A stretch of 64,000 nt of DNA from a bacterium. Lineage in GTDB: Bacteria > Patescibacteriota > Minisyncoccia > JAHIHE01. A program made the position numbers and the translations under genes. This document shows positions 11,737 to 54,140 of this stretch, one piece after another. The stretch's first letter is position 1. Each line of letters begins with the position of its first letter. The notes under the pieces were generated by a model. It was given only the letters and a program-made list of their open reading frames with translations. It did not search any database and was not told the DNA's origin. The stretch spans positions 2,059 through 66,058 of the forward strand of contig JAUYBG010000010.1 in NCBI GenBank assembly GCA_030693205.1, read 5' to 3'.

Positions 11737-11800
11737 ATTATGATTTATGATTAAAGATTTAAGAATAATTCGTAAATCATAAATCTTAAATCGTAAATCA
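11737..11800. repeat. GATTTA/TAAATC inverted-repeat hairpin element, copy 1 of 5, in the rplR-rpsE spacer
   Basis: tgatttatgattaaagatttaag...cgtaaatcataaatcttaaatcgtaaatc. The arms are reverse complements (gatttatgattta / taaatcataaatc). Confidence 0.6.
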
Positions 11801-11806
11801 AACAAT

Positions 11807-12352
11807 ATGGTTTTTAGAGACAAAAGAGAAAAAAGCGAATATGATCAAAAACTTCTGGAAGCTAGCCGCGTGGCTCGCGTGGTTAAAGGCGGAAAGCGCT
11901 TCAGTTTCAGGGCTTTGGTGATCATCGGAAACCGGAAAGGAAAAGTTGCAGTCGGAGTCGCTAAAGGCGCTGATCTTACCGATGCTACCCAGAAATCCGT
12001 GACCAATGCCAAAAAATCGATCATTGTCGTGCCGATTACGAATGGCAGCATTCCTCATGAAGTTTATCAGAAATATGGAGCAAGTATGGTTTTGATAAAA
12101 CCGGCTCCCAAAGGAAGCGGTATTATTGCCGGCGGAGCGGTTCGCACGATTTTGGAATTAGCCGGAGTGGCAAATGCTTCCGGTAAAATACTCGGCTCTA
12201 CTAATAAGCTGAATTGCGCGCGAGCGACAATAATCGCATTGGGAAAATTTAAGTCCAATACTCGCCCTGTCAATATGCAAGCCAAGAAAATCGCGGAAGC
12301 GCCGGCAAAAGAGGCAAAAGGCGTAACGGAAGAAAAAGCTAAAAGCAAATAA
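11807..12352 (+). CDS. rpsE: 30S ribosomal protein S5
   Basis: RVARVVKGGKRFSFRALVIIGN...GAGVIAGG pattern. It is followed directly by rplO, so there is no L30 gene. Confidence 0.94.
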   Translation: MVFRDKREKSEYDQKLLEASRVARVVKGGKRFSFRALVIIGNRKGKVAVGVAKGADLTDATQKSVTNAKKSIIVVPITNGSIPHEVYQKYGASMVLIKPAPKGSGIIAGGAVRTILELAGVANASGKILGSTNKLNCARATIIALGKFKSNTRPVNMQAKKIAEAPAKEAKGVTEEKAKSK

Positions 12353-12398
12353 TAAATAATATTATAGTTAAATTTTTGAGAAAGATAAGTTAAACTTT

Positions 12399-12821
12399 AT
12401 GCAAATTCACGAACTTACATTAAGCAAAAAAAGAAAAAGAGGGCAAAGAGTCGGCCGAGGCGGCAAGCGCGGCATTTATTCAGGCCGCGGCAATAAAGGC
12501 CAAAAAGCCCGAACAAATCACCGATTGAAATTAAAGAGGATCGGCTCCGGTTTGGCGCGCCATGTGCCGAAATTAGGCGGGTTTGTCAGTCTTAGCCCCC
12601 GATCAACCGCAGTTGATATTAAGAGATTAGAGGAAAAATTTTCCAACGGCGAATTGGTCACTCCTGTTTCGCTGAAAGCCAAGGGGATCATTAAGTCCAT
12701 TAAAAACCCCGTGAAAATCGTCGGAAATACCACACTTACTAAAAAATTTACAGTTAAAGATTGTCTGACAACCGTTTCTTCTAAAAAAAGCATAGAAAAA
12801 GCCGGGGGAATAATAAAATAA
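12399..12821 (+). CDS. rplO: 50S ribosomal protein L15
   Basis: MQIHELTLSKKRKRGQRVGRGGKRG start. Confidence 0.94.
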   Translation: MQIHELTLSKKRKRGQRVGRGGKRGIYSGRGNKGQKARTNHRLKLKRIGSGLARHVPKLGGFVSLSPRSTAVDIKRLEEKFSNGELVTPVSLKAKGIIKSIKNPVKIVGNTTLTKKFTVKDCLTTVSSKKSIEKAGGIIK

Positions 12822-12827
12822 TTATCA

Positions 12828-12935
12828 ATTTTCAATTTACAATGAATTTTCAATGAAATAATTTTCAAACAAAAGGTTTAAAAATTAAAGAATTAAAAAT
12901 TTAATAAAAATTAGAAATTAGAAATTGAAAATTTA
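12828..12935. repeat. AT-rich imperfect palindrome in the rplO-secY spacer (aattttcaattt / aaattgaaaatt arms)
   Basis: Arms are reverse complements, as seen in the sequence. Confidence 0.45.
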
Positions 12936-12942
12936 AATCCAT

Positions 12943-14214
12943 ATGTTTGATAAAATTTTAAAGATTTTTCAAATAAAAGAGCTTCGCAATAAGATTCTGT
13001 ATGTCCTGGGGATAATGATCGTTTTTCGGTTGGCTTCGCATTTTCCCGTACCGGGAGTCGATACTGAAAAATTGCGGGCTTTTTTTGAGAATAACCAGCT
13101 TTTTGGCTTGCTTAATTTATTTTCCGGAGGCGGACTTTCAAGCCTTTCAATCGTAATGCTTGGAGTGGGTCCGTATATCACCAGTTCCATTATTATGCAG
13201 CTTTTGACAATGATCTTCCCTTCTTTTAAGGAAATGTATCACGAGGGTGGAGAAGCGGGAAGGCAAAAATTTAATCAATATTCAAGAATTTTGACAGTGC
13301 CGTTGGCTTTGCTCCAGGGATATGGAATGATAAAATTATTTCAGAATCAGGGAGTTCTTGATATTATGAGCAATCAGACGATGATCTATACCTTGGTTGT
13401 GATTACCGCTGGAACAATATTTTTAATGTGGCTGGGAGAATTGATCACTGAACAAGGCATTGGAAATGGCATATCTTTGATAATTTTCGCCGGAATTGTT
13501 TCGCAAATGCCGGAAACAGCGATAGGGAAGCTTACTTTAATGGACGCGAGTCAGATCCCGGGATATATAATATTCTTGGTTTTTTCGGTATTAGTTGTCG
13601 CCAGCGTCGTTTTGGCCAACGAAGCCCAGAGAAATCTTCCCGTTTCTTACGCCAAAAGGGTGCGGGGCGGAAAAATGTACGGCGGGGTGAATACTTATTT
13701 GCCGCTGAAGGTAAATTCTGCCGGAATGATCCCGATAATTTTCGCGATGTCGATAATGCTTTTTCCCGGCATGATCGGTTCTTTTTTGGTTACATCCAAA
13801 TATCCCGCGGTCGCATCCGCCGCCGTTTACATTGTTGCATTGTTTGAAAATCAAACTTTTTATGGAGCGATGTATTTTATCATGGTAGTGTTGTTCACAT
13901 TTTTCTATACGGCGGTAGTTTTCGAACCGCATACGGTCAGCGAGAATTTGCAAAAACAAGGCGGTTTTATCCCGGGGATCAGGCCGGGAAATCCGACCAA
14001 GGAATATTTATCCTACGTGATCAACAGGATCACTTTGGCCGGCGCGGTTTTCTTGGGATTGATAGCGGTTTTGCCGTTTATCGGGCAAGCGTTCACGGGG
14101 GATACCAGCTTAGTATTGGGAGGCGCGGCGGTATTGATCGTCGTTGGCGTGGTGCTTGATACGGTCCGCCAGATCGAAGCGCAGATCGTAACCAAAGATT
14201 ACGAACAGTATTAA
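12943..14214 (+). CDS. secY: Preprotein translocase subunit SecY
   Basis: 423 aa with 10 TM segments, LRNKILYVLGIMIVFRL start and a GIGNG motif region. Confidence 0.95.
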   Translation: MFDKILKIFQIKELRNKILYVLGIMIVFRLASHFPVPGVDTEKLRAFFENNQLFGLLNLFSGGGLSSLSIVMLGVGPYITSSIIMQLLTMIFPSFKEMYHEGGEAGRQKFNQYSRILTVPLALLQGYGMIKLFQNQGVLDIMSNQTMIYTLVVITAGTIFLMWLGELITEQGIGNGISLIIFAGIVSQMPETAIGKLTLMDASQIPGYIIFLVFSVLVVASVVLANEAQRNLPVSYAKRVRGGKMYGGVNTYLPLKVNSAGMIPIIFAMSIMLFPGMIGSFLVTSKYPAVASAAVYIVALFENQTFYGAMYFIMVVLFTFFYTAVVFEPHTVSENLQKQGGFIPGIRPGNPTKEYLSYVINRITLAGAVFLGLIAVLPFIGQAFTGDTSLVLGGAAVLIVVGVVLDTVRQIEAQIVTKDYEQY

Positions 14215-14305
14215 ACGCAAGTTCAATAAAACCGTAAAAATATAAAGTTTTTATCAGGTTATTTAAAATTTTAATTTTATAATCTTAGGGATTTTATAAA
14301 ATCTT

Positions 14306-14977
14306 ATGTCTCCATTTGTTATTACTATTATCGGTCCTCCGGGTTCGGGCAAGGGCACGCAAGGAAAAGTCGTTGCTCAAAAATATAATTTAAATCACAT
14401 CGGTGTTGGAGATCTCGTAAGACAGTTGATCGTTCTTGATACGCCGCTAGGCAAAAAAGCAAAAGATAATTATGATAAAGGAGTTCCCCAGCCGGATGAA
14501 ATTATTATTCAGGCTGTTAAGGAAAAAATAGAAAAAATGTCCGCGAGTCAGCGGAAAAAAGGTTTTCTTTTTGATACCTTTTTGTCTTTTAATCAGGCGA
14601 AAGCGTTCGATGAAGTTTTAAAAAATTATGATTTGCCGGGAAGTTTAGCTATTTATTTGAATATTAGCGCCGATACTGTCATTGAAAGAACCGAGAAACG
14701 GCTCATTTGTTCAAAATGCGGCGCTGTTTTTTTGTCCAAAGATCCGGCTTATAATACTGGGAAGTGTGACAAGTGCGGCGGGGATCTGATGGTCCGAAGC
14801 GATGATAAGCCCGAAGTGGTGCGTCGAAGGATTGAAGAATATAAATCAAGAATGCTGGATCTGAAAAAATATTATCAGGACAGAAAAAGGCTGATCGTCA
14901 TTAATGGCGAGCCTGCAATTGAGGAAATTCACAAGGATATTATTAAAAAGATAAATGAATTTCACAAAACCAAATAA
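14306..14977 (+). CDS. adk: Adenylate kinase with a Zn-lid type LID domain
   Basis: GPPGSGKGTQ P-loop, CSKCG...CDKCGG lid and RRRIEEY. Confidence 0.9.
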   Translation: MSPFVITIIGPPGSGKGTQGKVVAQKYNLNHIGVGDLVRQLIVLDTPLGKKAKDNYDKGVPQPDEIIIQAVKEKIEKMSASQRKKGFLFDTFLSFNQAKAFDEVLKNYDLPGSLAIYLNISADTVIERTEKRLICSKCGAVFLSKDPAYNTGKCDKCGGDLMVRSDDKPEVVRRRIEEYKSRMLDLKKYYQDRKRLIVINGEPAIEEIHKDIIKKINEFHKTK

Positions 14978-15623
14978 TTTGATCATTTTAGGCCCTTCCG
15001 GCTCGGGCAAGGGAACTCAAGCTGAACTTTTAGCGCGGAAATTTGATCTGAAAATGGTGGATGGCGGAGAATATTTAAGAAGCATTCTGGCCTCAAAAAG
15101 CGGTGCTTTTAAAAAATTGGCGGAAAAAATGAACAAAGGCAATCTGGCTCCTACTGATATAATCAGAGATTGGATAAAGAAGCAGGTTTTCGGAAAACCT
15201 ATCAGCCGCGGATTGATCTTTAGCGGACAGCCCAGGATGATCGGCGAGGCAAAACTGACATTGAAATGGTTTCGGGAAAGCAAGCGGGGAGTGCCAGTAG
15301 TGATCTTTTTAAAAGTTTCAGCGCGAGAAGTGCTGAAGCGTCTGGCAAAAAGATATATTTGCGAAAAATGCAAAAAAGTATATACTTTAAATGAATTTCC
15401 CAAGAAGCCTTGCGGAGCTTGCGGAGGAAAAATTATCAAGCGCGCCGACGATACGCCGAAATTGATACGGAACAGATTGGCATATTTTCGCGAACAGGTG
15501 GCGAAAACTTTGGAATTTTTTAAGAAAAAAGGAATTTTGATCGAGATAAACGGCGAGCAAGGAGTAGCTTTAGTAAATCGGGAAATACTAAAGAAAATTA
15601 GCGATCATTTCCGTCGTAATTAA
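14955..15623 (+). CDS. Second adenylate-kinase-family paralogue with a Zn lid, overlapping adk by 23 nt
   Basis: GPSGSGKGTQ P-loop, CEKCKKVY...CGACGG lid, and RADDTPKLIRNRLAYF. Confidence 0.85.
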   Translation: MNFTKPNNLIILGPSGSGKGTQAELLARKFDLKMVDGGEYLRSILASKSGAFKKLAEKMNKGNLAPTDIIRDWIKKQVFGKPISRGLIFSGQPRMIGEAKLTLKWFRESKRGVPVVIFLKVSAREVLKRLAKRYICEKCKKVYTLNEFPKKPCGACGGKIIKRADDTPKLIRNRLAYFREQVAKTLEFFKKKGILIEINGEQGVALVNREILKKISDHFRRN

Positions 15624-15637
15624 TTTGAAAGGTATGC

Positions 15638-15710
15638 AAGATTTATGATTAACGATTTAAGATTTATGAGTAAGGCTCGAACTATAGCCGTATTCTTAAA
15701 TCATAAATCA
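15638..15710. repeat. GATTTA/TAAATC inverted-repeat hairpin element, copy 2, in the adk2-map spacer
   Basis: aagatttatgattaacgatttaagatttatgag ... ttcttaaatcataaatca. Confidence 0.6.
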
Positions 15711-15717
15711 AAATATC

Positions 15718-16491
15718 GTGATTTATATCAAAACTCCCCAAGAGATCGCTTTGATCCGTGAAGGCGGGAAAATCCTCGCGCAAATATTGGAGGATCTGGG
15801 TCAGTCGGTAAAGCCGGGAATGAAAACAATTGAACTGGATAGGCTTGCTGAAAGCCTTGTTTTTAAATATGGCGCGGCGGCGGCTTTTAAAAATTATAAG
15901 CCCGATTTTAATCATGACGGCCAGGGTGGTTTTCCGGCGAGCGTTTGCGTGTCGGTGAATGAAGAAGTGGTGCATGGAATTCCGGGAGAACGGGTGTTGC
16001 AGGAAGGCGATATCGTGAGTTTGGATATGGGAGTTTTGTACAAAGGTTATTTTACGGATGCGGCGATCACGGTTGGCGTGGGAAAAATTTCGCCAGAGGC
16101 CCAGAAATTAATCGCGGTGACAAAAAGATCCCTGGAGCTAGCGATTGAGAAAACCAAGATTGGCAATCATTTGGGCGATATCGGTTTCGCGGTGCAATCT
16201 TACGCGGAAAAAAACGGTTTTTCAATAGTGCGGGATCTGGTGGGGCATGGAGTGGGAAAATTTATCCACGAAGAGCCGGAGATCCCTAATTTTGGCAAGC
16301 CGGGCACGGGGTTAGAAATAAAAGAGGGAATGGTTTTGGCTTTTGAGCCGATGGTAAATGTTGGCGGTTATAAAGTTAAAACTCTGGTTGATGGCTGGAC
16401 TTATACGACTTGCGATAAAAGTCTTTCGGCGCATTTCGAGCATACGGTGGCGGTGACGAAAAACGAAGCGGAAGTGCTGACGAGGCTATAA
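15718..16491 (+). CDS. map: Methionine aminopeptidase type I
   Basis: GTG start, metal-ligand context FTDAAITVGVG...HGVGKFIHEEP...FEPMVN. Confidence 0.93.
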   Translation: MIYIKTPQEIALIREGGKILAQILEDLGQSVKPGMKTIELDRLAESLVFKYGAAAAFKNYKPDFNHDGQGGFPASVCVSVNEEVVHGIPGERVLQEGDIVSLDMGVLYKGYFTDAAITVGVGKISPEAQKLIAVTKRSLELAIEKTKIGNHLGDIGFAVQSYAEKNGFSIVRDLVGHGVGKFIHEEPEIPNFGKPGTGLEIKEGMVLAFEPMVNVGGYKVKTLVDGWTYTTCDKSLSAHFEHTVAVTKNEAEVLTRL

Positions 16492-16544
16492 TTTATTGAC
16501 AAAAAACGCAACAATAGTTAAGCTATGGCTAGGAGGAATGATGA

Positions 16545-29838: not shown

Positions 29839-30240
29839 ATGTCTAAGATCCTAGCCATTGATTATGGAGAAAAAAGAGTGGGGCTGGCCACGGCCATTGA
29901 GGAGCTGAAAGTAGCTTTGCCTTTTGGCATTATTGAAAACAAAGGGTATCTTGATCTGGTGCCGGAAATTATGGAAATTTGCCGGAAAGAAATGGTAACT
30001 AGAATTGTAGTGGGTATTCCCGCGGGTTTAAGCGGAAAACCGACCGAGCAAACCATAAAAACCAAAAAATTTATTGAGATATTGAGGGAAAAAACAGGCA
30101 TTCCGGTAGAGGAACAAAGTGAAATTTTCACTTCACACGAAGCGAGAGGCATATTCAAAGATGCCGGAGTCAAAAAGAAGAGAATTGATGAATCTGCGGC
30201 GGTTCTAATCCTGGCGGATTATCTGGAAAGGCGGGGATAA
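29839..30240 (+). CDS. ruvX: Putative pre-16S rRNA nuclease / Holliday-junction-resolvase-like YqgF
   Basis: ILAIDYGEKRVGLA...RIVVGIP. Confidence 0.85.
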   Translation: MSKILAIDYGEKRVGLATAIEELKVALPFGIIENKGYLDLVPEIMEICRKEMVTRIVVGIPAGLSGKPTEQTIKTKKFIEILREKTGIPVEEQSEIFTSHEARGIFKDAGVKKKRIDESAAVLILADYLERRG

Positions 30241-30280
30241 CCCGCCTTTTATAGTTTTGATAAATGTGGTATAATAAGGC

Positions 30281-30345
30281 AGGATTTAAGATTTATGATT
30301 TACGAATATTTTTTTACTTTTTCTTAAATCTTAAATCATAAATCA
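30281..30345. repeat. GATTTA/TAAATC inverted-repeat hairpin element, copy 3
   Basis: ggatttaagatttatgatttacg ... cttaaatcttaaatcataaatc. Confidence 0.6.
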
Positions 30346-31130: not shown

Positions 31131-31205
31131 GTGATTTAAGATTAAAGATTTACGATTTAAGAATAATCAAAGATTCATAAATCATAAATCATAATTCATA
31201 AATCT
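31131..31205. repeat. GATTTA/TAAATC inverted-repeat hairpin element, copy 4
   Basis: gtgatttaagattaaagatttacgatttaag ... cataaatcataaatcataattcataaatc. Confidence 0.6.
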
Positions 31206-31209: not shown

Positions 31210-32202
31210 ATGTCTTCTTTATCTGAAATTCGCCAGGATCTAGTTAGCGGCGCGTGGGTTGTGATCGCCACCGGACGCGCTAAACGCCCCGACGATTTTA
31301 AGAACAAAAAAGATCAAAAACCCAACGAAAACGGGGGCGAATGTTTTTTTTGCGATATGTCAAAACAGGCCAAACCGGTTTTGGTTTACGAAAAGTCGAA
31401 AGGGGACTGGACAGTAGCGGTCGTGCCCAATAAATACCCGGCTTTTGATTACTCGAAGAAACTGGATAGGCGGACCGAAGGGCCTTTTTCAGTAGTCAAT
31501 GGCGTCGGATATCACGAAGTTATAATTACGCGAGATCACGCAAAGCACATTGCACTTATGAGCACGGTTCAGGTTATGGAAATAATAAACGCTTATCAGG
31601 AGCGATACTTGAATTTAATGAATAAGAGATTTGTGGATTATATTTCTATTTTTCACAATCATGGCAAAGAAGCGGGAGCGTCGGTCAATCATCCCCATTC
31701 GCAACTGATCGCTATGCCGGTCATTGATCCGGATGTTTACCGGAGCTTGAACGGCTCTGATAATTATTGGCATCAGAACAAAGAATGCGTTCATTGCGTA
31801 ATGATCGATTGGGAAAAAGAAAATAAAAAAAGAGTTATATTTGAAAATAAAGATTTTATCGCGTTTTGTCCTTTTGCCTCGCGGAGCGCTTTTGAAGCGC
31901 GGATCTACCCCAAATTTCACGCGCCGTATTTTGAGAGAATTACTCCGGCCGGCAAGATCCAGCTTGCGGAAGCGCTAAGGATAGTTTTGGCAAAGATCAA
32001 TATAGGGCTGGATAATCCGCCGTATAATTTTTTCTTGCATACCGCGCCTTGCGACGGCAAAGATTATCCTCATTATCATTGGCATTTTGAAATTATGCCG
32101 AAAACTTCCATTTGGGCCGGTTTTGAACTAAGCACCGGAATCGAAATTTCCACTATTGAGCCGGAAAAAGCGGCTGAGTTTTTAAGAGAGCAAAAAGTTT
32201 AG
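31210..32202 (+). CDS. GalT-family (HIT superfamily) nucleotidyltransferase, galactose-1-phosphate uridylyltransferase-like
   Basis: HPHSQLIAMP (HxHxQ), Cys/His zinc site CFFC..., and length. Confidence 0.75.
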   Translation: MSSLSEIRQDLVSGAWVVIATGRAKRPDDFKNKKDQKPNENGGECFFCDMSKQAKPVLVYEKSKGDWTVAVVPNKYPAFDYSKKLDRRTEGPFSVVNGVGYHEVIITRDHAKHIALMSTVQVMEIINAYQERYLNLMNKRFVDYISIFHNHGKEAGASVNHPHSQLIAMPVIDPDVYRSLNGSDNYWHQNKECVHCVMIDWEKENKKRVIFENKDFIAFCPFASRSAFEARIYPKFHAPYFERITPAGKIQLAEALRIVLAKINIGLDNPPYNFFLHTAPCDGKDYPHYHWHFEIMPKTSIWAGFELSTGIEISTIEPEKAAEFLREQKV

Positions 32203-32214: not shown

Positions 32215-32339
32215 ACTGCATTTGTCATTCCGAACTTGTTTCGGAATCTATAATAGTATCTGTAGCGCTCAATAGAATCAATAAAAATATAAACGAGTAT
32301 TAAAGATCCTGAAATAAATTCAGGATGACAAAATAAATT
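32215..32339 (+). promoter_or_regulatory. Structured 5' leader of tpiA: an outer TTTGTCAT/ATGACAAA stem enclosing two hairpins and ending 7 nt before the ATG
   Basis: The inverted repeats are seen directly in the sequence (cattccgaa/ttcggaatc and cctgaa/ttcagg). Confidence 0.35.
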
Positions 32340-33107
32340 ATGACCGATCGAAAAATCATTATTGCCAATTGGAAAATGAATCCGGAAACTTTTAGCGAAG
32401 CCAGGGAGCTTTTTAATGCTATAAAAAAAGAAACGAGAAAGACGGAAAACGCGGAAGTGATCATTGCTTCTCCCGCGCTTTGGCTTCCGCAATTGAAGAT
32501 CAATGATGGCGATAATATAAGCATTGGAGCGCAAAATATGCATTGGGAGGAAAAAGGCGCTTATACCGGAGAAATTTCCCCGGTAATGCTTAAAGACGCG
32601 ATGGTGAAATACGTAATTGTCGGGCATTCGGAAAGAAGAATGTATTTTGGGGAAACTGACAATACGATAAACGCAAAAATTTTAGCGGCTTTTAAAAATA
32701 AACTGATACCGATCTTGTGCATTGGCGAAAAACTTGAAGAAAAAAACGAAGAAAAGACTCAGGATGTTATTAAAAAACAGATAAATGACGCTTTCGCCAA
32801 TATTACGGAAAACGAAGTTGAGGCGAATAAAATTTTTATTGTTTATGAGCCGATTTGGGCGATAGGAAGCGGCTTAATTCCGACTTTTGATGATATTTTA
32901 AGCTCCAAATTGCTGATCAAAAAAATGCTTGCTGGTTTTTATAGCCGGCAGGTTGCCGATAAGGTTCCAATTTTATATGGAGGAAGCGTCAGCAGCCAGA
33001 ACGCGAAGGATATTATCAATAAAGGCAATATGGATGGTTTGCTGGTAGGAGGATCAAGCATTAAAGCAAATGAGTTCATAAATATAATAAAAGCGGTGTC
33101 AAATTAA
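32340..33107 (+). CDS. tpiA: Triosephosphate isomerase
   Basis: IIANWKMN, VGHSERR, EPIWAIGSG and YGGSV motifs. Confidence 0.95.
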   Translation: MTDRKIIIANWKMNPETFSEARELFNAIKKETRKTENAEVIIASPALWLPQLKINDGDNISIGAQNMHWEEKGAYTGEISPVMLKDAMVKYVIVGHSERRMYFGETDNTINAKILAAFKNKLIPILCIGEKLEEKNEEKTQDVIKKQINDAFANITENEVEANKIFIVYEPIWAIGSGLIPTFDDILSSKLLIKKMLAGFYSRQVADKVPILYGGSVSSQNAKDIINKGNMDGLLVGGSSIKANEFINIIKAVSN

Positions 33108-33108
33108 A

Positions 33109-33210
33109 TAAAAATTAAAAGTGAAAAATTAAAAACGATAGATAAAAATTAAAAATTTTAGATTTTAAATTATCATTTTTAGTTTTTCGTTTTAAATTTT
33201 TCATTTATAT
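33109..33210. repeat. AT-rich imperfect palindrome in the tpiA-fba spacer
   Basis: The left arm gaaaaattaaaaacga is mirrored by tcgttttaaatttttc. Confidence 0.4.
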
Positions 33211-34071
33211 ATGTTTTTTCCCGCAAAAAAATTACTGCTTGATGCCAGGCGGCGCGGTTACGCGATTGGCGCTTTTAATACCGGAAATCTCGAAATAACT
33301 CAGGCAATAATCAATGCCGCAGTGGCGAAAAAATCGCCGATAATTATTAATGTCTCGGAAGCGGCCATTGAATACGCCGGACTCGATGCTATCGTTTCCA
33401 TTATAAGATCTTTGGGCGCTGATAGAGAGGCGAAAAAAATACCGATGGCGATCCAGGTTGATCATGGAAAAAAGATCGAGAGATTTCCCGATTATATTAA
33501 AGCCGGATTTACCGCGCTGATGATGGATGCCTCAAGGCTTTCTTACGAAGAAAATGTTTCTTTGACCGCAAAGACGGTAAAATTGGCGCATAAACATAAA
33601 GTTAGCGCGCAAGGCGAGCTGGGCGCTGTGCCTTATAAAGGCGAAGAAGCGAAATTCAATGTTTGGGAAAAAGCGATGACTGATCCAGAGCAGGCGAAAG
33701 AATTCGTGAAAAAGACGGGAGTGGATTATCTGGCGGTGGCGATCGGCAATGCTCATGGTTTTTACAAAGAGCGGGAAGATCTGGATTTTATTCGTTTGAA
33801 AAAAATATTTCAGCTTGTCAAAATTCCTTTGGTGCTTCATGGCGCATCGGATTTTCCGGATATCAAGATAAAAGACGCAATTCGGAGAGGGGTGGCATTG
33901 TTCCATATCGATACGGATATACGAGTGGCTTTTAGTTTTGCCATAAAAGAATATTTGGGAAAAAATCCGGCCGAATACGATCCCAGGAAGATCTTGGCTT
34001 TTGCCAGGAAAAAAACCCAAGACGCGGTCGAGAAAAAAATGGAAGTTTTCGGCAGCGCGGGAAAAGCGTGA
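33211..34071 (+). CDS. fba: Class II fructose-bisphosphate aldolase
   Basis: GYAIGAFN and metal-ligand His residues in QVDHG and LHGASDF. Confidence 0.9.
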   Translation: MFFPAKKLLLDARRRGYAIGAFNTGNLEITQAIINAAVAKKSPIIINVSEAAIEYAGLDAIVSIIRSLGADREAKKIPMAIQVDHGKKIERFPDYIKAGFTALMMDASRLSYEENVSLTAKTVKLAHKHKVSAQGELGAVPYKGEEAKFNVWEKAMTDPEQAKEFVKKTGVDYLAVAIGNAHGFYKEREDLDFIRLKKIFQLVKIPLVLHGASDFPDIKIKDAIRRGVALFHIDTDIRVAFSFAIKEYLGKNPAEYDPRKILAFARKKTQDAVEKKMEVFGSAGKA

Positions 34072-35544: not shown

Positions 35545-36349
35545 AATAGGCATTTAGAGAGAAAAACCATCATTAAACTAATTATTAGGGACAGAGACGG
35601 AAACTTTTATTTTATAAATTATTTTATGGAATATTTAACGACAACCTACCAGGAAAGGAAGCGCAAAAGTTAAACGTCATTATTTTAGTTTTATTAATTG
35701 CCCGCTTCCAAGAGAAAGACGGGTTTTTTAGTTAAAAAAAATAAATTTGTGTGAAAATTGCAGTACATTAAAAATAATGTATCGCAATTTCTACACAACA
35801 GTTTGGGTAGAAAGTTCGCTTACAATTTATATTTATTATAGTCTTAAATCGTCAAGAGGATATTTATTTGCTCTGATCTGCCAATTTGGCGGAACAATGC
35901 GGGTAAGATATTCTAAAGTAAACAACCCCGAACCAATCTGCCAGCGAGCAGATGCTACGGGGTAAAAATCTTCAAAACTAGTAATCGCTGATTGCTAGTT
36001 AAAGTAAAAATGAAAAACTCATACTAAGAGTATATGGTGGATGCCTTGACATAAAAAGTCGATGAAGGACGTGGTGTAACTACGAAAAGCCTCGGTGAGC
36101 CGTTAACAGGCCGTGACCCGGGGGTATCCGAATGGGGAAACCCTTCTGAGTAAACCTCAGAAATTATTATCTGAATTAAGTAGGGTAATAAAGAGAACCT
36201 AGGGAAGTGAAACATCTCAGTACCTAGAGGAAAAGAAAAAAATGTTAATATTGATAACGGTGGCAGACATTATTTATTTAATGCCTACATCGGTATCGGT
36301 ATTATTTATTCCCTGAGTAGTGGCGAGCGAAATGGGAAAAGCCTAAACC

Positions 36350-36592
36350 TCTCGATGCGTGACATCGGAATTTTCAAGCACCAATTTTCAAGCACCAAAC
36401 AAAATTTAAATAACCAAAATTCAAAACTCCAAACAAATTGGAATTTAGAAAATTGGGATTTGGAATTTGATTGGGATTTGGAATTTGGGATTTGGAGCTT
36501 CCGCTGTTGCGCAGCGGGTGGTGTTGCAAGGTGGGTGCGTTATCGGAGTAATCCGGTACAGAGCTAACTAAATGTAATTTGATTAGTCAAAT
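36350..36592 (+). repeat. Roughly 220-nt expansion segment with tandem repeats inside the 23S 5' domain
   Basis: It lies between the conserved GAGCCTAAACC and TTCCTGGAAAGGACG. It contains ttttcaagcacca repeated twice and gggatttggaattt-like units repeated three times. Confidence 0.7.
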
Positions 36593-36762
36593 GTTCCTGG
36601 AAAGGACGACCAAAGAGGGTGATAGTCCCGTAGATGAAAATCATTACATGCTCTGAGTATCTATTCTTAAGTACCATAGGGCCAGAGAAACCCTATGGGA
36701 ATCCGGCAGTACTACTAACTTTGTCGCAAGACAAACTGCCAAGGCTAAATACTTTTTATGAT

Positions 36763-36799
<37 letters not shown>

Positions 36800-38252
36800 T
36801 AGCCCGTTTAGGGCAGTGAAATAGAAACTGAAATCATATACTTACAACGAGTGGGAGCCTTGCTTCGGCAGGGTGACCGCGTGCTTTTTGCAGAACGAAC
36901 CAACGAGTTTGCTAGGTATTGCAAGTCTAAGCTCTTCGGAGCGGAGGCGTAGTGAAAGCGAGGGTTAAATACCCGTTTAGCAATACTTACAAGACCCGAA
37001 ACCAGGTGAGCTAGCCATGAGCAGGATGAACCTCAACGAAAGTTGAGGGGAGGTCCGAACCCATTAGCCGTGCAATACTATGGGATGACTTGTGGTTAGG
37101 GATGAAATTTCAATCGAACTTGGTAATAGCTGGTTCTCTCCGAAATAGCTATAGGGCTAGCGTCCTTTGTTCCACTTTGGGGGTAGAGCACTGAATGGAC
37201 ACGGCTGGACTTTTGTCTACCTTGTCCAAACAAACTCCGAATACCAAAGTGCCAGAGAAGGGCAGTCAGAACGTGAGGGCTAAGCTTCACGCTCAAAAGG
37301 GGAACAGCCCAGATCGTCGTCTAAGGTCCCTAAATCTATGCTAAGTGATTTTAAGGAAGTGAGGTTTCTTAAACAGCTAGGAAGTTGGCTTAGAAGCAGC
37401 CATCTTTTAAAGAGTGCGTAACAGCTCACTAGTCTACTGAAATCTTGCGCCGAAAATGTCCGGGGCTAAGCATAGTACCGAAGACACGGGTTGTCATGTC
37501 CTCCGGGATGTGGCAGCGGTAGGAGAGCGTTCCATACGCAGTGAAGTCTGAGCGCGAGTAAAGATGGAGTGTATGGAAGTGAGAATGTTGGTATGAGTAA
37601 CATGAATTATGGTGAGAAACCATAACACCGAAAGCTTAAGGTTTCCTGGGCAACGAAAATCAACCCAGGGTTAGTCGGTCCTAAGGCGAGGTCGAAAGAC
37701 GTAGTCGATGGATAGCTGGTTAATATTCCAGCACTACTATATGTCATGATATGGAAGGACGCAATGTGGGAGGTTGGGCACATTATTGGATTTGTGTCAA
37801 TATCTTGTAGGCTGATTCGCGAGGCAAATCCCGTGGATCTTTGAAAGCAATTTCATAAAAGCCGAGAGATGTTGGAACTTCTGCCTAAGGGCGGGAGAAC
37901 CTAACTGGGGTCATGTTGCCAAGAAAATTTTCTAATTTATCATATAGTAACCGTACCGCAATCCGACACAGGTGAGCAGGCATCAGCGTGCCAAGGTGTA
38001 CGGGAGAACTCTTGTTAAGGAATTCGGCAAAACAACGGCCGTAACTTCGGGATAAGGCCTGCCTATCGCAAGATAGGCTGCAATAAAAGAAATCAGGGCG
38101 ACTGTTTAACAAAAACACAGGTCTATGCTAACCCGCAAGGGGATGTATATGGGCCGACGCTTGTCCAGTGTCAGAACGTTAAGGTTGGAAGTGAAAGCTT
38201 TCGGCTGAAGCGCTGATGAACGACAGCGGTAACTATAACCGTTCTAAGGTAG

Positions 38253-38630
38253 TGGATTTACTTAAGGAAGTGAATTCACTAGGATTGGAACGGCTATAGG
38301 GAGAACAGTCAAGGAAAAAAAGTAGCTGCCCATTTCTGTAAAAAGAAATGTCCATTTGGCCATATGCTGGAAACTCTGGTGAATCTGATGTTACTATGGT
38401 ATAATACGCACATAGACAATATGAGAAAATATTATGCCGAGTAAAAATACATTCAGTGCAGACAATCAGCAGGAAAGGCCAGAAATATTATAATATTTCT
38501 GGAATCCTCAGAGATCAAACGCCAAAACCATTGATAGAAAGATGGTAAGATATGACCCTATCTCTATGGCGACATAGAGGGATATCAACAAATATCCATT
38601 TCGTTTAATGACGGAATAAAAACAAATGAG
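38253..38630 (+). other. Roughly 378-nt insertion in 23S rRNA at the conserved GGUAG|CGAAAUUCC site. It is a candidate ORF-less group I intron or an intervening sequence.
   Basis: The conserved flanks are contiguous in typical 23S rRNAs. The insert is AT-rich with no long ORF. Confidence 0.6.
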
Positions 38631-39191
38631 CGAAATTCCTTGTCACTTAATTAGTGACGTGCATGAATAGCGGAACGACCCTGGTACTGTCTCAACAAGT
38701 GACCCGGTGAAATCGCATTAACAGTGAAGATGCTGTTTACCTGCAGCTAGACGAAAAGACCCTATGAAGCTTTACTATAACTTGGTATTGAGCCAAATTT
38801 TGAAATGCTTAGAATAGGTGGGAGACTTCGATCCTTAATCTCCGGATTAAGGGGAGTCGCAATATGAAATACCACTCTTTTTACAATTTTGTTCTAACCT
38901 CATACCGTAATCCGGTATAGGAACAGTGCCTGGCGGGTAGTTTGACTGGGGCGGTTGCCTCCTAAAAAGTAACGGAGGCGTTTAAAGGTCGGCTAGGCGC
39001 GGATGGAAATCGCGCTGATAGCGCAAAAGCATAAGCCGGCTTTACTGTGAGACTGACGGGTCGAACAGTTGCGAAAGCAGAATTTAGTGATCCGATGTGT
39101 CCATGTAGGTGGCACAAAGCTCAACGGATAAAAGCTACTCTAGGGATAACAGGCTAGTCCAGTCCAAGCGTCCATAGCGACGACTGGGTTC

Positions 39192-39227
<36 letters not shown>

Positions 39228-39775
39228 AAGAAGCTCCCAAGGGTTTGGCTGTTCGCCAACTAAAGCGGTACGTGAGCTGGGTTCAAACCGTCGTGAGACA
39301 GGTTGGACTCCTATCTACTGCAGGCGTAGATACTTGCGAGAACTCTTTTCTAGTACGAGAGGACCGAAAAGAACGAACCTCTGGTGCACCAATTGTCATG
39401 CCAATGGCATAGTTGGGTAGCTAAGTTCGGACGAGATAAACGCTGAAAGCATATAAGCGTGAAACTCATCTCAAGATTAGGTATCATAGATTCCAGAGAG
39501 ATGATCTGGTAAAATTCTGTCGCAAGACAGAACTGATAGGGTGCAGGTGTAAGTGTAGCAATACATTCAGCCGAGCACTACTAATGAATCATTGGAGTTT
39601 TTCATAACTTACTTTAACCGGCAATTAGCGGGTGTTATGAGAAGATAATGTTTATGATTGATTTGAATACTATATAAATATAAATTTAAGGGAATACGAA
39701 TTTTAGGTATTTACCCCGTTAAATAAAATTTTAATAAATTTTGGATTGTTTTTTTTACAATTCATTTAATAGGGG

Positions 39776-47615: not shown

Positions 47616-47732
47616 AATATAGATTAAAATATTTACAATCTAAAAGCCCTGCTTTTTTGCAGGGCTTTTAGATTGTTTTTTCCTCCATAAAGTTTTATTT
47701 TTAGAGAGTGCGTTGCATATTTAAATTTTATT

Positions 47733-48311: not shown

Positions 48312-48350
48312 TTATTTTCACCGCCTTTCTGTTTAGTTTTTTTAATTATT

Positions 48351-50553: not shown

Positions 50554-50565
50554 GGTATTTTTGAT

Positions 50566-50670
50566 TTGTGCGATACTTGTTTGTCATTGCGAGGAGCCGA
50601 AGCGACGAAGCAATCTAAATTTAAGATTTGAGATTGCCACGCTCCTTTTAGTCGCTCGCAATGACAGACG
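50566..50670 (-). promoter_or_regulatory. Long nested hairpin in the prfA 5' leader
   Basis: 12-bp perfect arms TTGTCATTGCGAG / CTCGCAATGACA enclosing nested GCGAC/GTCGC and GCAATCT/AGATTGC stems. Confidence 0.4.
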
Positions 50671-50865
50671 AGGGCTTTTTAGCGCAAAAAATAGCATTGA
50701 ATATTTCGTTGTTCTATGCTATGTTTAATAGCGACAAGTAGTATTGTTATATCATAATTTGGCGAGGAAGACAAGTTTAAATGATATATAAAGATATTTT
50801 CGCATAATGACGAGTTAGGCGAAATTCATTTTTGGCCTAAACAAAATAATAAATAACTAAACACT

Positions 50866-51309
50866 ATGATTATCATTCACATCCTAATATCAATAGTATT
50901 CTACTTTATTTTAATGTATCTAAGCATAAATCTGTTAGGGCTGCTCGCGAGAGGATTCTTTACCAATCCAGAAATCGATAAATTAAAAACTGAAACTAAA
51001 CATGATTTTATTAAAGAGGAAATTAAAAAATCTGAACGTGCCGATAAATTGCTTAATGTAATCGCGTTTTTGGCAATTATTGGTTATCTTTATGCCACAT
51101 TTCATTTTTGGAATATAGGAGTTACTGCTGTTGCATTAGTATTGATGTTAGTAAGACTCCCTGCTTTGCTTTGGGAAATAAAAACAGGGCAACATCTTAA
51201 TCGTGTTGCTTCAGCTTTATCGATGCCCAAAAACGCTTTATATTACATCACCACTTTTTTAACTTTCGCAGCCCTACCAGCTTTATATTATTCCTTGTAT
51301 CGTTTTTAA
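50866..51309 (+). CDS. Hypothetical membrane protein (147 aa, 4 TM), AT-rich
   Basis: Hydrophobic helices. Low GC. Confidence 0.5.
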   Translation: MIIIHILISIVFYFILMYLSINLLGLLARGFFTNPEIDKLKTETKHDFIKEEIKKSERADKLLNVIAFLAIIGYLYATFHFWNIGVTAVALVLMLVRLPALLWEIKTGQHLNRVASALSMPKNALYYITTFLTFAALPALYYSLYRF

Positions 51310-51315
51310 AATAAA

Positions 51316-51909
51316 ATGATAATTTATTACAATAGTAAAGAAGAAAAATTACTTAAACAGCTCGAAAAAATGCACAGCAGTTCACAAAAAATTAACCTTA
51401 ACAATTCTATTGGTGAACTTAAATGTATTTTACTAGATAAGCCACATTATTTAACGAGTGTTCAAGTGAACAGGGACGGACTGCTCGGTTCATTAAGAAG
51501 GATTGAATGCGCTTATCGTTGGTGTGAAAAAGCGCCGTTAAATTACGAAGGATCTGACAAAAGAGAAGCGTTAACATTAGTTTTTTTTCATAATTCAAAA
51601 TGTTTCATAGAAATTTTAAAAAAGTGTTTTATAAAATTTAGTTCAAATAAAAAAAATAAAAAAGTATTTCATGAAATTACAACAATAAGAGATCTTTTTG
51701 CTCATTCATACGAAAAAGATTTTTTTGGAAAGAAAACTTTTATAAGAATTAATATTAATCATCAGTTTAACAAAGGTCTTTTTGAGTTAGAAGTTTTTAA
51801 TTTTGATACTTCAAAAAAAATATATGGGATATTTTTTTCTCTTTCAGTTTTTTTATCAGAGATAGAGGAATTAGTTAAAGAATTAATTAATCATATAAAG
51901 AAAAATTAG
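51316..51909 (+). CDS. Hypothetical protein (197 aa), AT-rich
   Basis: ORF only. Confidence 0.45.
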   Translation: MIIYYNSKEEKLLKQLEKMHSSSQKINLNNSIGELKCILLDKPHYLTSVQVNRDGLLGSLRRIECAYRWCEKAPLNYEGSDKREALTLVFFHNSKCFIEILKKCFIKFSSNKKNKKVFHEITTIRDLFAHSYEKDFFGKKTFIRININHQFNKGLFELEVFNFDTSKKIYGIFFSLSVFLSEIEELVKELINHIKKN

Positions 51910-51929
51910 ATGAGTTAATAAAGTCTATT

Positions 51930-52763
51930 ATGAACATAAAAACCCAAACCGCAAAAATCGCGATTTTTCAAAAAAAAGAAATTCGTAAAGTTATTTATAA
52001 AAACGAATGGTGGTTTGTAATTACTGATATTATTGTAGCGTTGACTGATTCTATTCAGCCGGAAGGATATATAAAAGATATGCGCCGCCGAGACGAAGAA
52101 CTTTCCAAAGGGTGGGGGCAAATTGCCACCCCCCTTAAGATACTTACAAAAGGCGGTTTGCAAAATATGAATTGCGCCAATACTGAAGGTATTTTCCGCA
52201 TAATTCAATCAATTCCTTCCCCTAAAGCCGAGCCATTCAAGCGTTGGCTGGCCAGAGTCGGTTATGAACGGGTAAAAGAAATCGAAGATCCGGAACTGGC
52301 CACCAAAAGAACCCGCGCGCTTTATAAAGCCAAAGGATATTCCAATGCATGGATCGAGAAAAGAATGCGCGGCATCGAAGTCCGCGAAACTTTGACCGAT
52401 GAATGGAACAAGCGGGGCGTAAAAGAAGGGCAGGAATACGCGATTTTAACCGCTGAAATTTCCCAAGCGGCTTTTGGAATGACGCCAAGCGAATACCAGA
52501 AATTCAAAGGCTTAAAAAGAGAGAATTTGCGGGATCATATGGATGATTTGGAATTGATATTTACCATGCTTGGCGAAGCTTCAACCACTGAAATCGCCAA
52601 GAATAAAAACGCTCAAGGTTTTGTCGAAAATAAAGTTGCCGCCATAAAAGGTGGAAGCGTGGCTGGCAAAGCGCGAAAAGATTTGGAGAAAAAAAGCGGC
52701 AAAAAAGTTTCAACTAAAGAAAATTATTTATTAAAAGCGGAAGATAAAAAAAGATTAAAATAA
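51930..52763 (+). CDS. Bro-N domain protein (phage antirepressor-like) with a KilA-C/DinD-like C-terminal region
   Basis: Matches Bro-N: NEWWFVITDIIVAL... resembles the PWFVAKDVAEAL-type segment, and KAEPFKRWLARV resembles EAKAFKRWV... Confidence 0.65.
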   Translation: MNIKTQTAKIAIFQKKEIRKVIYKNEWWFVITDIIVALTDSIQPEGYIKDMRRRDEELSKGWGQIATPLKILTKGGLQNMNCANTEGIFRIIQSIPSPKAEPFKRWLARVGYERVKEIEDPELATKRTRALYKAKGYSNAWIEKRMRGIEVRETLTDEWNKRGVKEGQEYAILTAEISQAAFGMTPSEYQKFKGLKRENLRDHMDDLELIFTMLGEASTTEIAKNKNAQGFVENKVAAIKGGSVAGKARKDLEKKSGKKVSTKENYLLKAEDKKRLK

Positions 52764-52824
52764 ACCAAAACAAAAATCGAGGTTTAACCCTCGATTTTAA
52801 AATATCTATATAAATTTTATGCGG

Positions 52825-53142
52825 TTAGACTTTCGCTTCAGTAACCGGTTCGGTTTTAGCTTTCGCAACTTCCGGTTTTTTAGCTTCAACTTTTTCAGCT
52901 TTCTTGCCGGTTTTTGCTTTTTTGGCTTTCGCTACTTTTGGTTTTTTCTTAGCCATTAATTTCTGGAATCTTTCAACTCGTCCGGTAGTATCAATGAGTT
53001 TCTTCTTGCCGGTATAGAACGGATGGCAAGATGAGCAAATTTCCACCAAAAGTTCCGGTTTGGTCGACATGGTTTCGAAGCTCGCTCCGCAAGCGCATTT
53101 TGCTATTGATTTGATATACTTAGGATGAATTTTCGGTTTCAT
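52825..53142 (-). CDS. rpmE: 50S ribosomal protein L31 (zinc-binding form) with a Lys/Ala-rich C-terminal tail
   Basis: MKPKIHPKY...CACG...[11 protein letters not shown]. Start trimmed from the ORF-track 53193 to the MKPKIHP ATG. Confidence 0.88.
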
Positions 53143-53341
53143 AGAAATAGGTCTTAATTTAAATAGATTATAACAATAAAAGCATTCTAGCACGGAATAA
53201 GATTCTTGACAAGAGGGAGGTGATAAGCTATTATATGTATATTGTAAATTATTAATTTTTAACGATTAACCCATAGCTTAGATACGATATAGCTATTTTC
53301 ATATACTATATGTACTATCCTGAAATACAGCGATAGAAAGG

Positions 53342-54034
53342 GTGGGTAGAAAGAAAAAACTTATGGAAATGTTAAAAGCGGGAGTTCATTTTGGACACAA
53401 GACTACGAAATGGAGTCCGAAAATGGCGCCTTTTATTTTTGGCGTGAGAAACGATACTCATATTATCGATTTGGAAAAAACCATTATTAAGCTCAATGAA
53501 GCTCTGGTTTTTGTCAAAAAACTTGCAAAAAACAACGGCGTAATTATTTTTGTGGGAACAAAAAAGCAGGCAAAAGCCTATATCAAAGAAGTTGCCATAA
53601 AGGCGAATATGCCTTATGTTGCTGACCGCTGGATCGGCGGCTTGTTGACCAATTTTTCGATAATTTCCAAACAGATCAGGCTAATGGAGCAATTGGAAGC
53701 GGATATGAAAAGCGGCGCTTTGGATAAATATACCAAGAAAGAAAGAGTGATGATAGAAAAGAAAATAAAAAAATTAAACCAGAAATTCGGCGGATTGAGA
53801 TTGCTCAAGAAATTGCCGGACGCGGTATTTGTGACCGATATCAACGAAGACAGGATTGCGGTCAATGAAGCGAGGGATAAAAATATTCCGATCATTGCCT
53901 TGGCTGATACAAACGTGGATCCCGGTTTAGTAACTTATCCGATCCCGGCCAATGACGACGCGCTGAGTTCGATCAAAGTGATCGTGAATAAGATCGTGGA
54001 AGAATATGAAGCCAACAAGCCGGCAAAAAAGTAA
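53342..54034 (+). CDS. rpsB: 30S ribosomal protein S2. The true start may be the downstream MEMLKAG.
   Basis: MLKAGVHFGHKTTKWSPKM...ADRWIGGLLTNF. Confidence 0.93.
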   Translation: MGRKKKLMEMLKAGVHFGHKTTKWSPKMAPFIFGVRNDTHIIDLEKTIIKLNEALVFVKKLAKNNGVIIFVGTKKQAKAYIKEVAIKANMPYVADRWIGGLLTNFSIISKQIRLMEQLEADMKSGALDKYTKKERVMIEKKIKKLNQKFGGLRLLKKLPDAVFVTDINEDRIAVNEARDKNIPIIALADTNVDPGLVTYPIPANDDALSSIKVIVNKIVEEYEANKPAKK

Positions 54035-54054
54035 AATAAATTTTACGGATATTT

Positions 54055-54140
54055 TTTGATTTAAGATTTACGATTTAAGATTTACGAATGAATGAATTAA
54101 TTATATTCATAAATTATAAATCATATTTCATAAATCGTTT
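54055..54140. repeat. GATTTA/TAAATC inverted-repeat hairpin element, copy 5, in the rpsB-tsf spacer
   Basis: tgatttaagatttacgatttaagatttacgaatg ... cataaattataaatcatatttcataaatcg. Confidence 0.6.

Follow-up and report, generated by a model that had tools for sequence, protein, structure and literature searches.

What kind of element recurs in five intergenic spacers of one bacterial genome, built each time from GATTTA arms that face their own complement, and how did it come to be there? We addressed this question in a 64,000-nt stretch of contig JAUYBG010000010.1 (hereafter the window), a typical segment of a genome of the Patescibacteria, or candidate phyla radiation (CPR), with an S10-spc-alpha ribosomal-protein cluster and a 23S ribosomal RNA (rRNA) gene that carries large insertions. 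An earlier reading made from the letters alone (the sequence-only reading) had reported near-identical, hairpin-forming elements downstream of rplR, adk2, ruvX, a GT2 gene and rpsB, and had proposed that they are either dispersed elements resembling repetitive extragenic palindromes (REPs) or MITEs (miniature inverted-repeat transposable elements), or a family-specific terminator or protein-binding motif. Inspection of the window and Pfam assignment of the flanking genes (L18/S5, adenylate kinase 2/Met aminopeptidase, RuvX/GT2, GT2/GalT/HIT-like and S2/EF-Ts) confirmed the five sites and their neighbours; all five copies, designated E1 to E5 (Table 1), are intergenic and lie on the + strand in co-directional gaps. 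We conclude that they very probably belong to a class of foldback hairpins made of heptanucleotide simple sequence repeats (SSRs), and for their origin and role we favour, at a probability of about 0.5, a combined evolutionary and RNA account in which REP-like SSR foldback repeats grow by slippage, are exchanged by recombination and play a role as RNA hairpins.

Each element consists, in order, of about three to five tandem GATTTAN heptads, a GAAT...ATTC centre with a loop, and about three to five NTAAATC heptads. Degenerate units such as GATTAAN or GAATTAN also occur in the left arms, and the innermost unit is GAAT (GAGT in E2) opposite ATTC, enclosing a loop that extends 2–14 nt beyond the units and is dissimilar between copies. 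The elements are 62–79 nt long, with a G+C content of about 18–25%. With up to one mismatch allowed, the motif GATTTANGATTTA matches the window 25 times, compared with 1.35 ± 1.14 matches expected (maximum 4 in 100 dinucleotide shuffles), and every one of these matches is confined to the five element spacers, an enrichment above background within the window. Strict period-7 arrays number eight in the window versus 0.3 in block shuffles, and Tandem Repeats Finder (TRF) reported period 7 at all 10 arms of the five elements. The description of the copies as near-identical did not hold, given a mean column identity of only 60% and unrelated loops; they have in common the heptad consensus and the GAAT...ATTC centre, and are alike because of a common 7-nt unit, not because they are near-identical. 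The sequence-only reading had mentioned neither this tandem unit nor the other heptad hairpins in the window, nor a class extending well beyond this genome. Rfam 15 covariance models gave no match at the five sites, either at the gathering score or at E≤5.

The ribosomal operons of four relatives (L121, L124, L125 and L127), obtained via S5 homologues, were compared with that of the window, to which L124 and L125 are 85–93% identical (S5, L18, L15 and SecY), L121 is 84–88% identical (S5, L18 and L15) and L127 is 50–76% identical. In L121 and L127, nearly all operon spacers are about 80–160 nt long and each is a heptad hairpin, the families being mutually unrelated (GAAAGTA/TACTTTC, AGTCNNT, CAATTAA and AAAGTTA); L125 and the window have few heptad-hairpin spacers, and their remaining spacers are 1–35 nt long. 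Within the L121 and L127 genomes, copies are identical over a core that can reach about 100 nt, beyond which their ends differ by whole heptads. Likewise, the AATTTTC hairpin of the rplO/secY spacer is 89% identical between the window and L124, with indels of exactly +7 and −14 nt. Variation in unit number was seen for this AATTTTC family; in the GATTTA family, E1 contains as many units as its orthologue in L127. The arms of these hairpins change by the gain or loss of whole heptads, which is the slippage-type dynamics of an SSR.

Entire hairpins also differ between close relatives. L121 and a further genome, L122, encode identical S5 proteins, their L24, L5, L6, L18, S5 and L15 genes are 99.5–100% identical at the DNA level, and their spacers are 97.6–100% identical except for the L6/L18 spacer (31%), which is a 140-nt hairpin of the GAAAGTA family in L121 and a 103-nt hairpin of the TTAACAT family in L122. 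At the L18/S5 site, GATTTA hairpins are present in the window and in L127, a CAATTAA hairpin is present in L124 and none is found in L121 or L125, and the rplO/secY site of L127 carries a GATTTA hairpin instead of the AATTTTC family. At the ruvX/GT2 site, GATTTAN in the window corresponds to GTATTAN in L133, GAAATTA in L134 and L135, and other heptads in L154 and L204; L136, L137 and L168 have no hairpin there and appear leaderless. L133, which is 87% identical, retains the same terminator and TGTGGTATAAT promoter as the window, but the hairpin downstream of them is made of GTATTAN. The search of related genomes that the sequence-only reading had called for gave a divided answer, with GATTTA hairpins in L127 and other heptads, or none, at the same sites elsewhere: whole hairpins differ in one spacer of near-identical strains, and several families occupy the same spacers.

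Such replacement bears on the idea of a protein-binding motif, in the form of a double-stranded DNA operator or iteron array in which each heptad would take up one subunit of a protein that recognizes such repeats, as with the omega repressor of pSM19035 on direct and inverted arrays of WATCACW heptads, or by a nucleoid-associated protein. The contiguous 7-bp units, first direct and then inverted, the constant hexamer core with a free seventh base, the promoter adjoining E3 and the recurrence of GATTTA units in many phyla would all suit an array of this kind. However, the spacers of a single operon in the relatives contain at least six unrelated heptad families, and a genome of about 1 Mb is not likely to have a separate protein for every one of them; orthologous sites differ in their heptads (GTATTAN, GAAATTA, CAATTAA, TTAACAT); and most copies are operon-internal, with only E3 next to a promoter, unlike operators of the omega or ribbon-helix-helix (RHH) type, in which one heptad per regulator is found at promoters. 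We therefore regard a sequence-specific operator as very unlikely.

Three further observations were made in the operons of L121 and L122. The S3/L16 spacer of L121 (1000–1326, 327 nt) apparently holds several heptad hairpins side by side or nested, with the units TTCGAAA and AAATGTT, and the L14/L24, L24/L5 and L6/L18 spacers of the same genome look like an inner hairpin inside the loop of an outer one. The S14 gene (L121 4110–4295) is 87% identical between the two genomes and the S8 gene 96%, amid neighbouring genes and spacers that are 99.5–100% identical; this S14–S8 mosaic suggests that short tracts recombine frequently in these CPR populations.

The GATTTA hairpin is not confined to this lineage. 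A scan for GATTTANGATTTA followed, after a gap of 8–38 nt, by TAAATCNTAAATC in one genome per GTDB species returned at least 120 stretches; GATTTA hairpins were found at a minimum of 120 loci over about 12 phyla (grouped by record title), compared with a chance expectation that we estimate, depending on composition, at about 0.07 to 7. The counts that follow refer to the matches listed. Bacteroidota account for at least 41 loci, including cultured Parabacteroides, Butyricimonas, Gabonibacter, Flavobacterium and Emticicia, followed by Patescibacteria (at least 19), Verrucomicrobiota (at least 15), Chloroflexota (at least 12), Planctomycetota (at least 9), Proteobacteria (at least 7), Acidobacteriota and Desulfobacterota (at least 4 each), and other phyla or unclassified records (at least 9), with no locus in Bacillota or Cyanobacteria; some carriers are genomes of 55–67% G+C. 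Cultured carriers include Parabacteroides sp. ASD2025, P. massiliensis, Butyricimonas muris and Gabonibacter massiliensis. Of the cross-phylum copies, 115 of 122 lie outside long open reading frames (ORFs), and the 104 that could be classified by the orientation of the flanking genes comprise 66 co-directional, 21 divergent and 17 convergent gaps. Inverted arrays of many further heptads (GACAATT, CAATTCA, CGTGAAA, GAAAATT and others) are present at the same loci, and the arrays detected there are dominated by period 7, with 222 instances versus 40, 19 and 3 for periods 6, 8 and 9. In 318 kb of CPR sequence chosen independently of the motif (GT2 orthologue loci), we found 17 period-7 arrays with 15 different units, and none of the 17 was GATTTA, which is one of many heptad units.

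This distribution also bears on whether the elements are true MITEs, that is, non-autonomous transposons whose inverted repeats are transposase-binding heptads, mobilized in trans by an enzyme encoded elsewhere (on the chromosome, a phage or a plasmid) and spread horizontally among phyla. They are multi-copy, occur in either orientation and are present or absent among relatives; lineage subfamilies exist among the matches listed, such as Parabacteroides copies with a common loop, TCATCGACAC, in both orientations and a Planctomycetota metagenome-assembled genome (MAG) with eight copies that have common 35-nt arms and variable loops; a subfamily signature runs through the CPR; the same element stands at the same site in distant genomes; and L121 carries nested copies. 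Terminal inverted repeats are present as well, although trivially so, as in any palindrome. Against mobility by transposition, no direct repeat indicative of a target-site duplication flanks E1–E5 or three L121 copies, the ends are ragged in heptad steps instead of fixed, the five window copies have unrelated loops, a conserved interior appears only in some lineages (Parabacteroides and L121), and viral contigs hardly carry the motif (two matches). A transposed element of this kind is accordingly a quite unlikely explanation. Nor are the elements REPs or bacterial interspersed mosaic elements (BIMEs) in the strict sense, as they are not 20–40 nt long and G+C-rich and have no GTAG or CGTC head. 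What stands of the proposed REP/MITE-like nature is its broad meaning, a family of extragenic palindromes that occurs in multiple copies and whose presence varies among relatives; apart from the inverted repeats, the diagnostic features of either group that were compared here are lacking.

With regard to position, the five elements do lie downstream of the genes named in the sequence-only reading, at 65, 16, 42, 7 and 23 nt from the upstream stop codons of E1 to E5, but a more apt description is that they abut the gene that follows, with distances from element end to start codon of 7, 8, 31, 5 and 10 nt. This regularity is that of the window and not of the wider set: the cross-phylum copies listed are nearer the upstream stop than the downstream start in 40 versus 12 cases, at a median of 12 nt after the stop, whereas the window copies hug the next start codon, so that position relative to genes is inconsistent across taxa. 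E1, E2 and E5 are located inside the spc and rpsB-tsf operons. E3 follows the canonical GC-rich terminator of ruvX and starts 8 nt past the TG-TATAAT −10 box of a promoter-like site; because it is preceded by both, it is predicted to form the extreme 5′ end of the GT2 messenger RNA (mRNA). The promoter scan called no promoter-like site in the elements, except for one weak minus-strand match in E4. Sequences resembling a Shine-Dalgarno (SD) site within 20 nt of the start were found for 8 of the 62 predicted window genes, most starts being preceded by A/T-rich sequence, so that the missing SD site after the hairpins reflects the genome at large and not the element. In the relatives L136 and L137, only 7 nt separate TATAAT from the ATG of GT2, an arrangement suggestive of leaderless mRNAs.

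These positions leave little room for Rho-independent terminators or attenuators of an AT-rich type. The hairpins do lie downstream of stop codons, as do the cross-phylum copies at their short median distance, and TTTTT follows E4; that, however, is the only T run among the 3′ flanks of E1–E5 (AAACAAT, AAAATATC, AAAAACAT, TTTTTATG and GTTTACAA, respectively). The terminator scan called none of the five elements, which have no G+C-rich stem of at least 5 pairs with a short loop, three of them lie within essential operons and not at the ends of transcription units, and 21 of the copies listed stand between divergent genes. Since ordinary GC-rich terminators are used in this genome, the AT-rich heptad hairpin is a different kind of feature, and the family-specific terminator of the sequence-only reading can be set aside as highly improbable.

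Folding supports the hairpin-forming nature of the elements. Each is predicted to fold into 6-bp helices with single mismatches between them, with an RNA minimum free energy (MFE) of −15.6 to −20.5 kcal/mol (z −3.0 to −5.8) and a DNA MFE of −8.4 to −12.7 kcal/mol; RNA of the opposite strand is about as stable as the sense strand for the five elements. The predicted stems comprise 21–31 pairs broken by 1×1 mismatches, with just one G-C pair per heptad outside the E2 loop, and would reach the length expected of a substrate of RNase III (about 20 bp or more of mostly continuous double-stranded RNA). At the seventh base (N), 15 of 21 positions are mismatched, 9 of them A.A, because the sense strand is A-rich in both arms. 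Selection of the seventh base to avoid pairing was considered and rejected, as 6 of 21 positions pair, compared with 34% expected from the marginals (p=0.40). A device providing stops in all three frames through period-7 TAA or TGA was likewise considered but set aside, given that stops are frequent in AT-rich spacers anyway and that AATTTTC and GATTCCC lack stops on one strand.

If the hairpins had been selected as RNA, the sense strand should be favoured through G.U pairs, which become A.C on the other strand. Among the operon-spacer hairpins, from the window and its relatives alike, 16 were more stable on the sense strand and 23 on the antisense strand (p=0.24), and the 54 co-directional cross-phylum copies among the matches listed were divided equally, 27 to 27. 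The insertion hairpin of the 23S rRNA gene, which served as a positive control, was 13 kcal/mol more stable on the rRNA strand. Moreover, degenerate units in the window copies show no compensation in the opposite arm. The elements occur in either orientation, in every intergenic class and without an excess of sense-strand stability, and this symmetry, the uncompensated units and the inconsistent position argue against a strand- and position-specific RNA function as the reason for their existence. The same data do not argue against hairpins forming in the transcript, where the position of the elements makes them unavoidable.

A purely functional interpretation has to be weighed against these results. 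It holds that the elements are selected cis-acting RNAs that separate or process cistrons, protect the 5′ end of the downstream mRNA or position ribosomes at starts lacking an SD sequence, the heptads being only their mode of construction. The placement of all five copies 5–31 nt before a start codon suits such a role, and so do the promoter–hairpin–GT2 order kept with other heptads in L133 and L134 as with E3 immediately past its −10 box, the conservation of the E1 hairpin at 94% versus 43–54% at synonymous positions, a scarcity of SD sites that would make initiation context-dependent, and the working precedent of the hmw hairpin of Haemophilus influenzae. However, the strand symmetry and the uncompensated units speak against it, the corresponding spacers of the closest relatives are just 28–41 nt long and free of hairpins, a wholly different family fills one spacer of strains that are 99.7% identical, and the cross-phylum copies listed mostly lie closer to the stop codon of the preceding gene, with 21 of them between divergent genes. 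On balance, we consider selection for a cis-acting function rather unlikely as the explanation of the family.

The features that the elements do show are those of heptanucleotide SSRs, namely three or more tandem 7-nt units above chance, variation in unit number between relatives and an intergenic location, and we favour this class because these features are present while those of terminators, REPs and MITEs are absent. According to Mrazek et al. (2007), as relayed in PMC4679880 and PMC4692102, in many bacterial genomes the long simple repeats that occur most often are heptanucleotide repeats, which are over-represented in intergenic DNA and have been attributed to polymerase slippage on a 7-nt footprint. 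In Beggiatoaceae, Cyanobacteria and some Bacteroidetes, TAACTGA repeats precede start codons by a few nucleotides, those in ribosomal operons among them, and have no known function (PMC4679880); some GGGAATC repeats of Xanthomonas form inverted pairs able to fold into stem-loops, and GGGGATT repeats occur in Nostoc (PMC4692102). The elements resemble these SSRs, as well as Mrazek's long SSRs and the short tandemly repeated repetitive (STRR) sequences of cyanobacteria, in their tandem 7-nt units, their almost exclusively intergenic location, often just before starts and also in ribosomal operons, their patchy spread across phyla, their length variation between relatives and the lack of a known function; GGGAATC, read as GATTCCC on the other strand, even has the GATT core in common with GATTTAN. 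They differ in that both arms of every copy are heptad arrays, so that the hairpin is the rule, and in that several families coexist, different families occupy the same spacer of relatives and the host belongs to the CPR. A G-quadruplex is not possible in the GATTTAN elements because their unit is AT-rich.

The only heptad-repeat hairpin we found that has been worked out experimentally is that of H. influenzae hmw1A, where a long hairpin that RNase III cleaves has (ATCTTTC)n of the 5′ untranslated region (5′UTR) as its left arm, and where changes in repeat number need the hairpin, RNase III and transcription (PMC12721329). The parallel is a transcribed heptad SSR in a 5′UTR that folds into a long hairpin; the hmw1A heptads, however, form the left arm only, opposite a G-rich region, and belong to the single locus of a phase-variable adhesin, in contrast to a dispersed family in housekeeping operons.

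Other known hairpin systems offer partial parallels. REP elements are co-transcribed and can stabilize upstream mRNA. The REPs and BIMEs of Proteobacteria, palindromes associated with REP-associated tyrosine transposases (RAYTs), are, like the present elements, short extragenic imperfect palindromes that are multi-copy and occur in either orientation (PMC3733652). Their size, G+C-richness and head motifs, and the absence of tandem units, set them apart from the GATTTA elements. The Correia or NEMIS MITEs of Neisseria are co-transcribed inverted-repeat elements in spacers whose hairpins are cut by RNase III; the fixed termini, target-site duplications and conserved interior that characterize them and other bacterial MITEs were not found here. 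Intervening sequences of 23S rRNA are extended stem-loops at helix tips that are removed by RNase III, and the 23S rRNA gene of the window likewise carries a 158-nt repeat-built hairpin at a helix tip, although the five GATTTA elements are in mRNA spacers and not in rRNA. The foldback (FB) transposons of Drosophila have long inverted arms of short tandem repeats around a variable middle, but they are eukaryotic and kilobase-sized, with repeat units of 10–31 bp.

In the combined account that we favour, small palindromes would expand by replication slippage with 7 nt as the favoured unit, as proposed for bacterial heptanucleotide SSRs, and would spread via recombination or gene conversion between arrays and not through a transposase. 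Being inside operons or directly after a promoter, the elements would be transcribed, and the transcript would form an A.U-rich duplex of 21–31 bp interrupted at each seventh base. Because they fold on themselves, such self-contained hairpins may be tolerated in spacers and at the tip of an rRNA helix. By analogy with REP, Correia and hmw hairpins, they probably serve as RNase III cleavage sites or as exonuclease barriers that protect mRNA ends.

Several results weigh against this account. In L127, the most distant of the relatives, the hairpin that occupies the E1 site is 94% identical to E1 (62 of 66 positions), while the rest of the E1 spacer is 74% identical to L127 and the flanking third-codon positions are 43% and 54% identical. 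No recombination tract was detected around E1, the third-position identity near the spacer (0.55 and 0.67) being within the range of the genes (0.30–0.70). Neutral, fast turnover should not preserve repeats so well. A GAAT...ATTC centre was found, by a strict test, in 5 of 20 CPR copies versus 1 of 102 copies from other phyla among the matches listed (p=4e-4), and in more by eye; such a CPR-specific centre implies a coherent, long-lived lineage and not repeated de novo origin. No RNase III signature was found among the window genes, although a 64-kb piece of the genome is uninformative at that size, and in viral contigs the counts are too few to compare (GATTTA 2, and its permutations GTATTA 0, GTTTAA 0 and GATATT 2).

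The conservation of E1, the CPR-wide GAAT...ATTC signature and the spread over phyla allow for a real function or for a factor specific to the sequence. On the boldest reading, heptad foldbacks would be an unrecognized class of cross-phylum elements with a propagation mechanism of its own, for instance expansion coupled to transcription and RNase III as in hmw or a hairpin-specific recombinase, and with a real role in cutting or stabilizing operon mRNAs, or even in expanding rRNA helices, in SD-poor bacteria, GATTTA being a conserved lineage recognized by a specific factor. This bolder proposal is offered tentatively, as one that we think is probably not correct. A literature search, whose incomplete coverage makes a negative weak evidence, returned no description of two-armed heptad hairpins as a dispersed class, of the GATTTA unit or of such elements in the CPR; queries on heptad dimers gave unrelated papers only, and those on CPR repeats gave only papers on Borg tandem repeats.

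Two-armed heptad hairpins as a systematic organization are an addition to the known heptad repeats. They fill spacers of the most expressed and most conserved operons of minimal CPR genomes, they differ within one spacer of strains that are otherwise about 99.7% identical, and the GATTTA unit recurs in cultured gut Bacteroidales. If they act as signals for processing or stability, gene expression in the CPR, about whose post-transcriptional biology almost nothing is known, would have them as a major feature; if instead they are selfish or neutral, they would add a new case of repeats proliferating in very small genomes and would also be a practical cause of assembly breaks and spacer hypervariability.

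Table 1. The five GATTTAN elements, E3 context and other heptad-built features of the window.
Feature	Position (nt)	Strand	Context and build
E1	11735-11799	+	rplR/rpsE (L18/S5) spacer; rpsE ATG at 11807; left arm GAATTAT GATTTAT GATTAAA GATTTAA GAATAAT, centre TC, right arm GTAAATC ATAAATC TTAAATC GTAAATC
E2	15640-15709	+	adk2/map spacer; map GTG at 15718; 4 GATTTAN-type units + GAGTAAG, GC-containing loop GCTCGAACTATAGC, 2 or 3 NTAAATC units
E3	30283-30344	+	ruvX/GT2 spacer; 3 GATTTAN units + GAATATT, T-rich loop, 3 NTAAATC units
E4	31133-31204	+	GT2/galT-like spacer; next ATG at 31210; left arm GATTTAA GATTAAA GATTTAC GATTTAA GAATAAT, centre CA, right arm AAGATTC ATAAATC ATAAATC ATAATTC ATAAATC
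E5	54058-54136	+	rpsB/tsf spacer; tsf ATG at 54147; 4 GATTTAN units + GAATGAA, loop, then TATATTC ATAAATT ATAAATC ATATTTC ATAAATC
ruvX terminator (E3 context)	30226-30250	+	canonical GC-rich intrinsic terminator
Promoter-like site (E3 context)	30248-30275	+	TTTATA, 16-nt spacer, extended -10 TG-TATAAT ending at 30275
AATTTTC / GAAATTN hairpin	12827-12933	+	rplO/secY spacer; same architecture, other heptad
TAAAAAT / AAATTTT, TCATTTT hairpin	33106-33219	+	period-7, A/T-rich; reaches next ATG (33211)
Period-7 array AAAATTA x4	11235-11261		shorter array
Period-7 array ATTGAAA	40203-40234		shorter array, just upstream of 5S rRNA
23S rRNA gene	36012-39605		3594 nt versus 2925-nt model
23S insertion, repeat-built foldback	36357-36515	+	158 nt; helix tip, about positions 283-288 of Rfam model
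Second 23S insertion	about 36240-36305		62 nt, about 60 nt upstream of the 158-nt insertion

Among the remaining features of the window (Table 1), the larger insertion in the 23S rRNA gene consists of two copies of AATTTTCAAGCACC facing a right arm of GGGATTT/GGAATTT heptads, with an MFE of −52.3 kcal/mol on the rRNA strand versus −38.9 kcal/mol on the antisense strand. It looks like an intervening sequence or an expansion with the architecture of the intergenic hairpins. The public contig of the same organism (L213) contains no further GATTTA hairpin in the 6.9 kb past the window end; it terminates there, at 13878–13907, in 4.3 copies of AAATCCC (GATTTGG heptads on the other strand), probably an assembly break at a heptad array.

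Two other kinds of palindrome were noted. An inverted repeat, TTGTCATTGCGAG...CTCGCAATGACA, encloses AATCTAAATTTAAGATTTGAGATT at 50576–50672, and a similar motif, GTCATTGCGAG/GTCATTCCGA, is also found in spacers at 32225–32330 of the window and at 4923–4965 of L124; repeats of this type may constitute a second, G+C-richer family of dispersed palindromes. A perfect 18-bp G+C-containing palindrome, ACAATCTAAAAGCCCTGC / GCAGGGCTTTTAGATTGT, lies between convergent genes at 47635–47676 and is likely to be a bidirectional intrinsic terminator, in contrast to the AT-rich heptad hairpins. Finally, the two adenylate kinase genes upstream of E2 are arranged in tandem (14306–14977 and 14955–15623) with a 23-nt overlap, and the same pair is present in L124 and L127.

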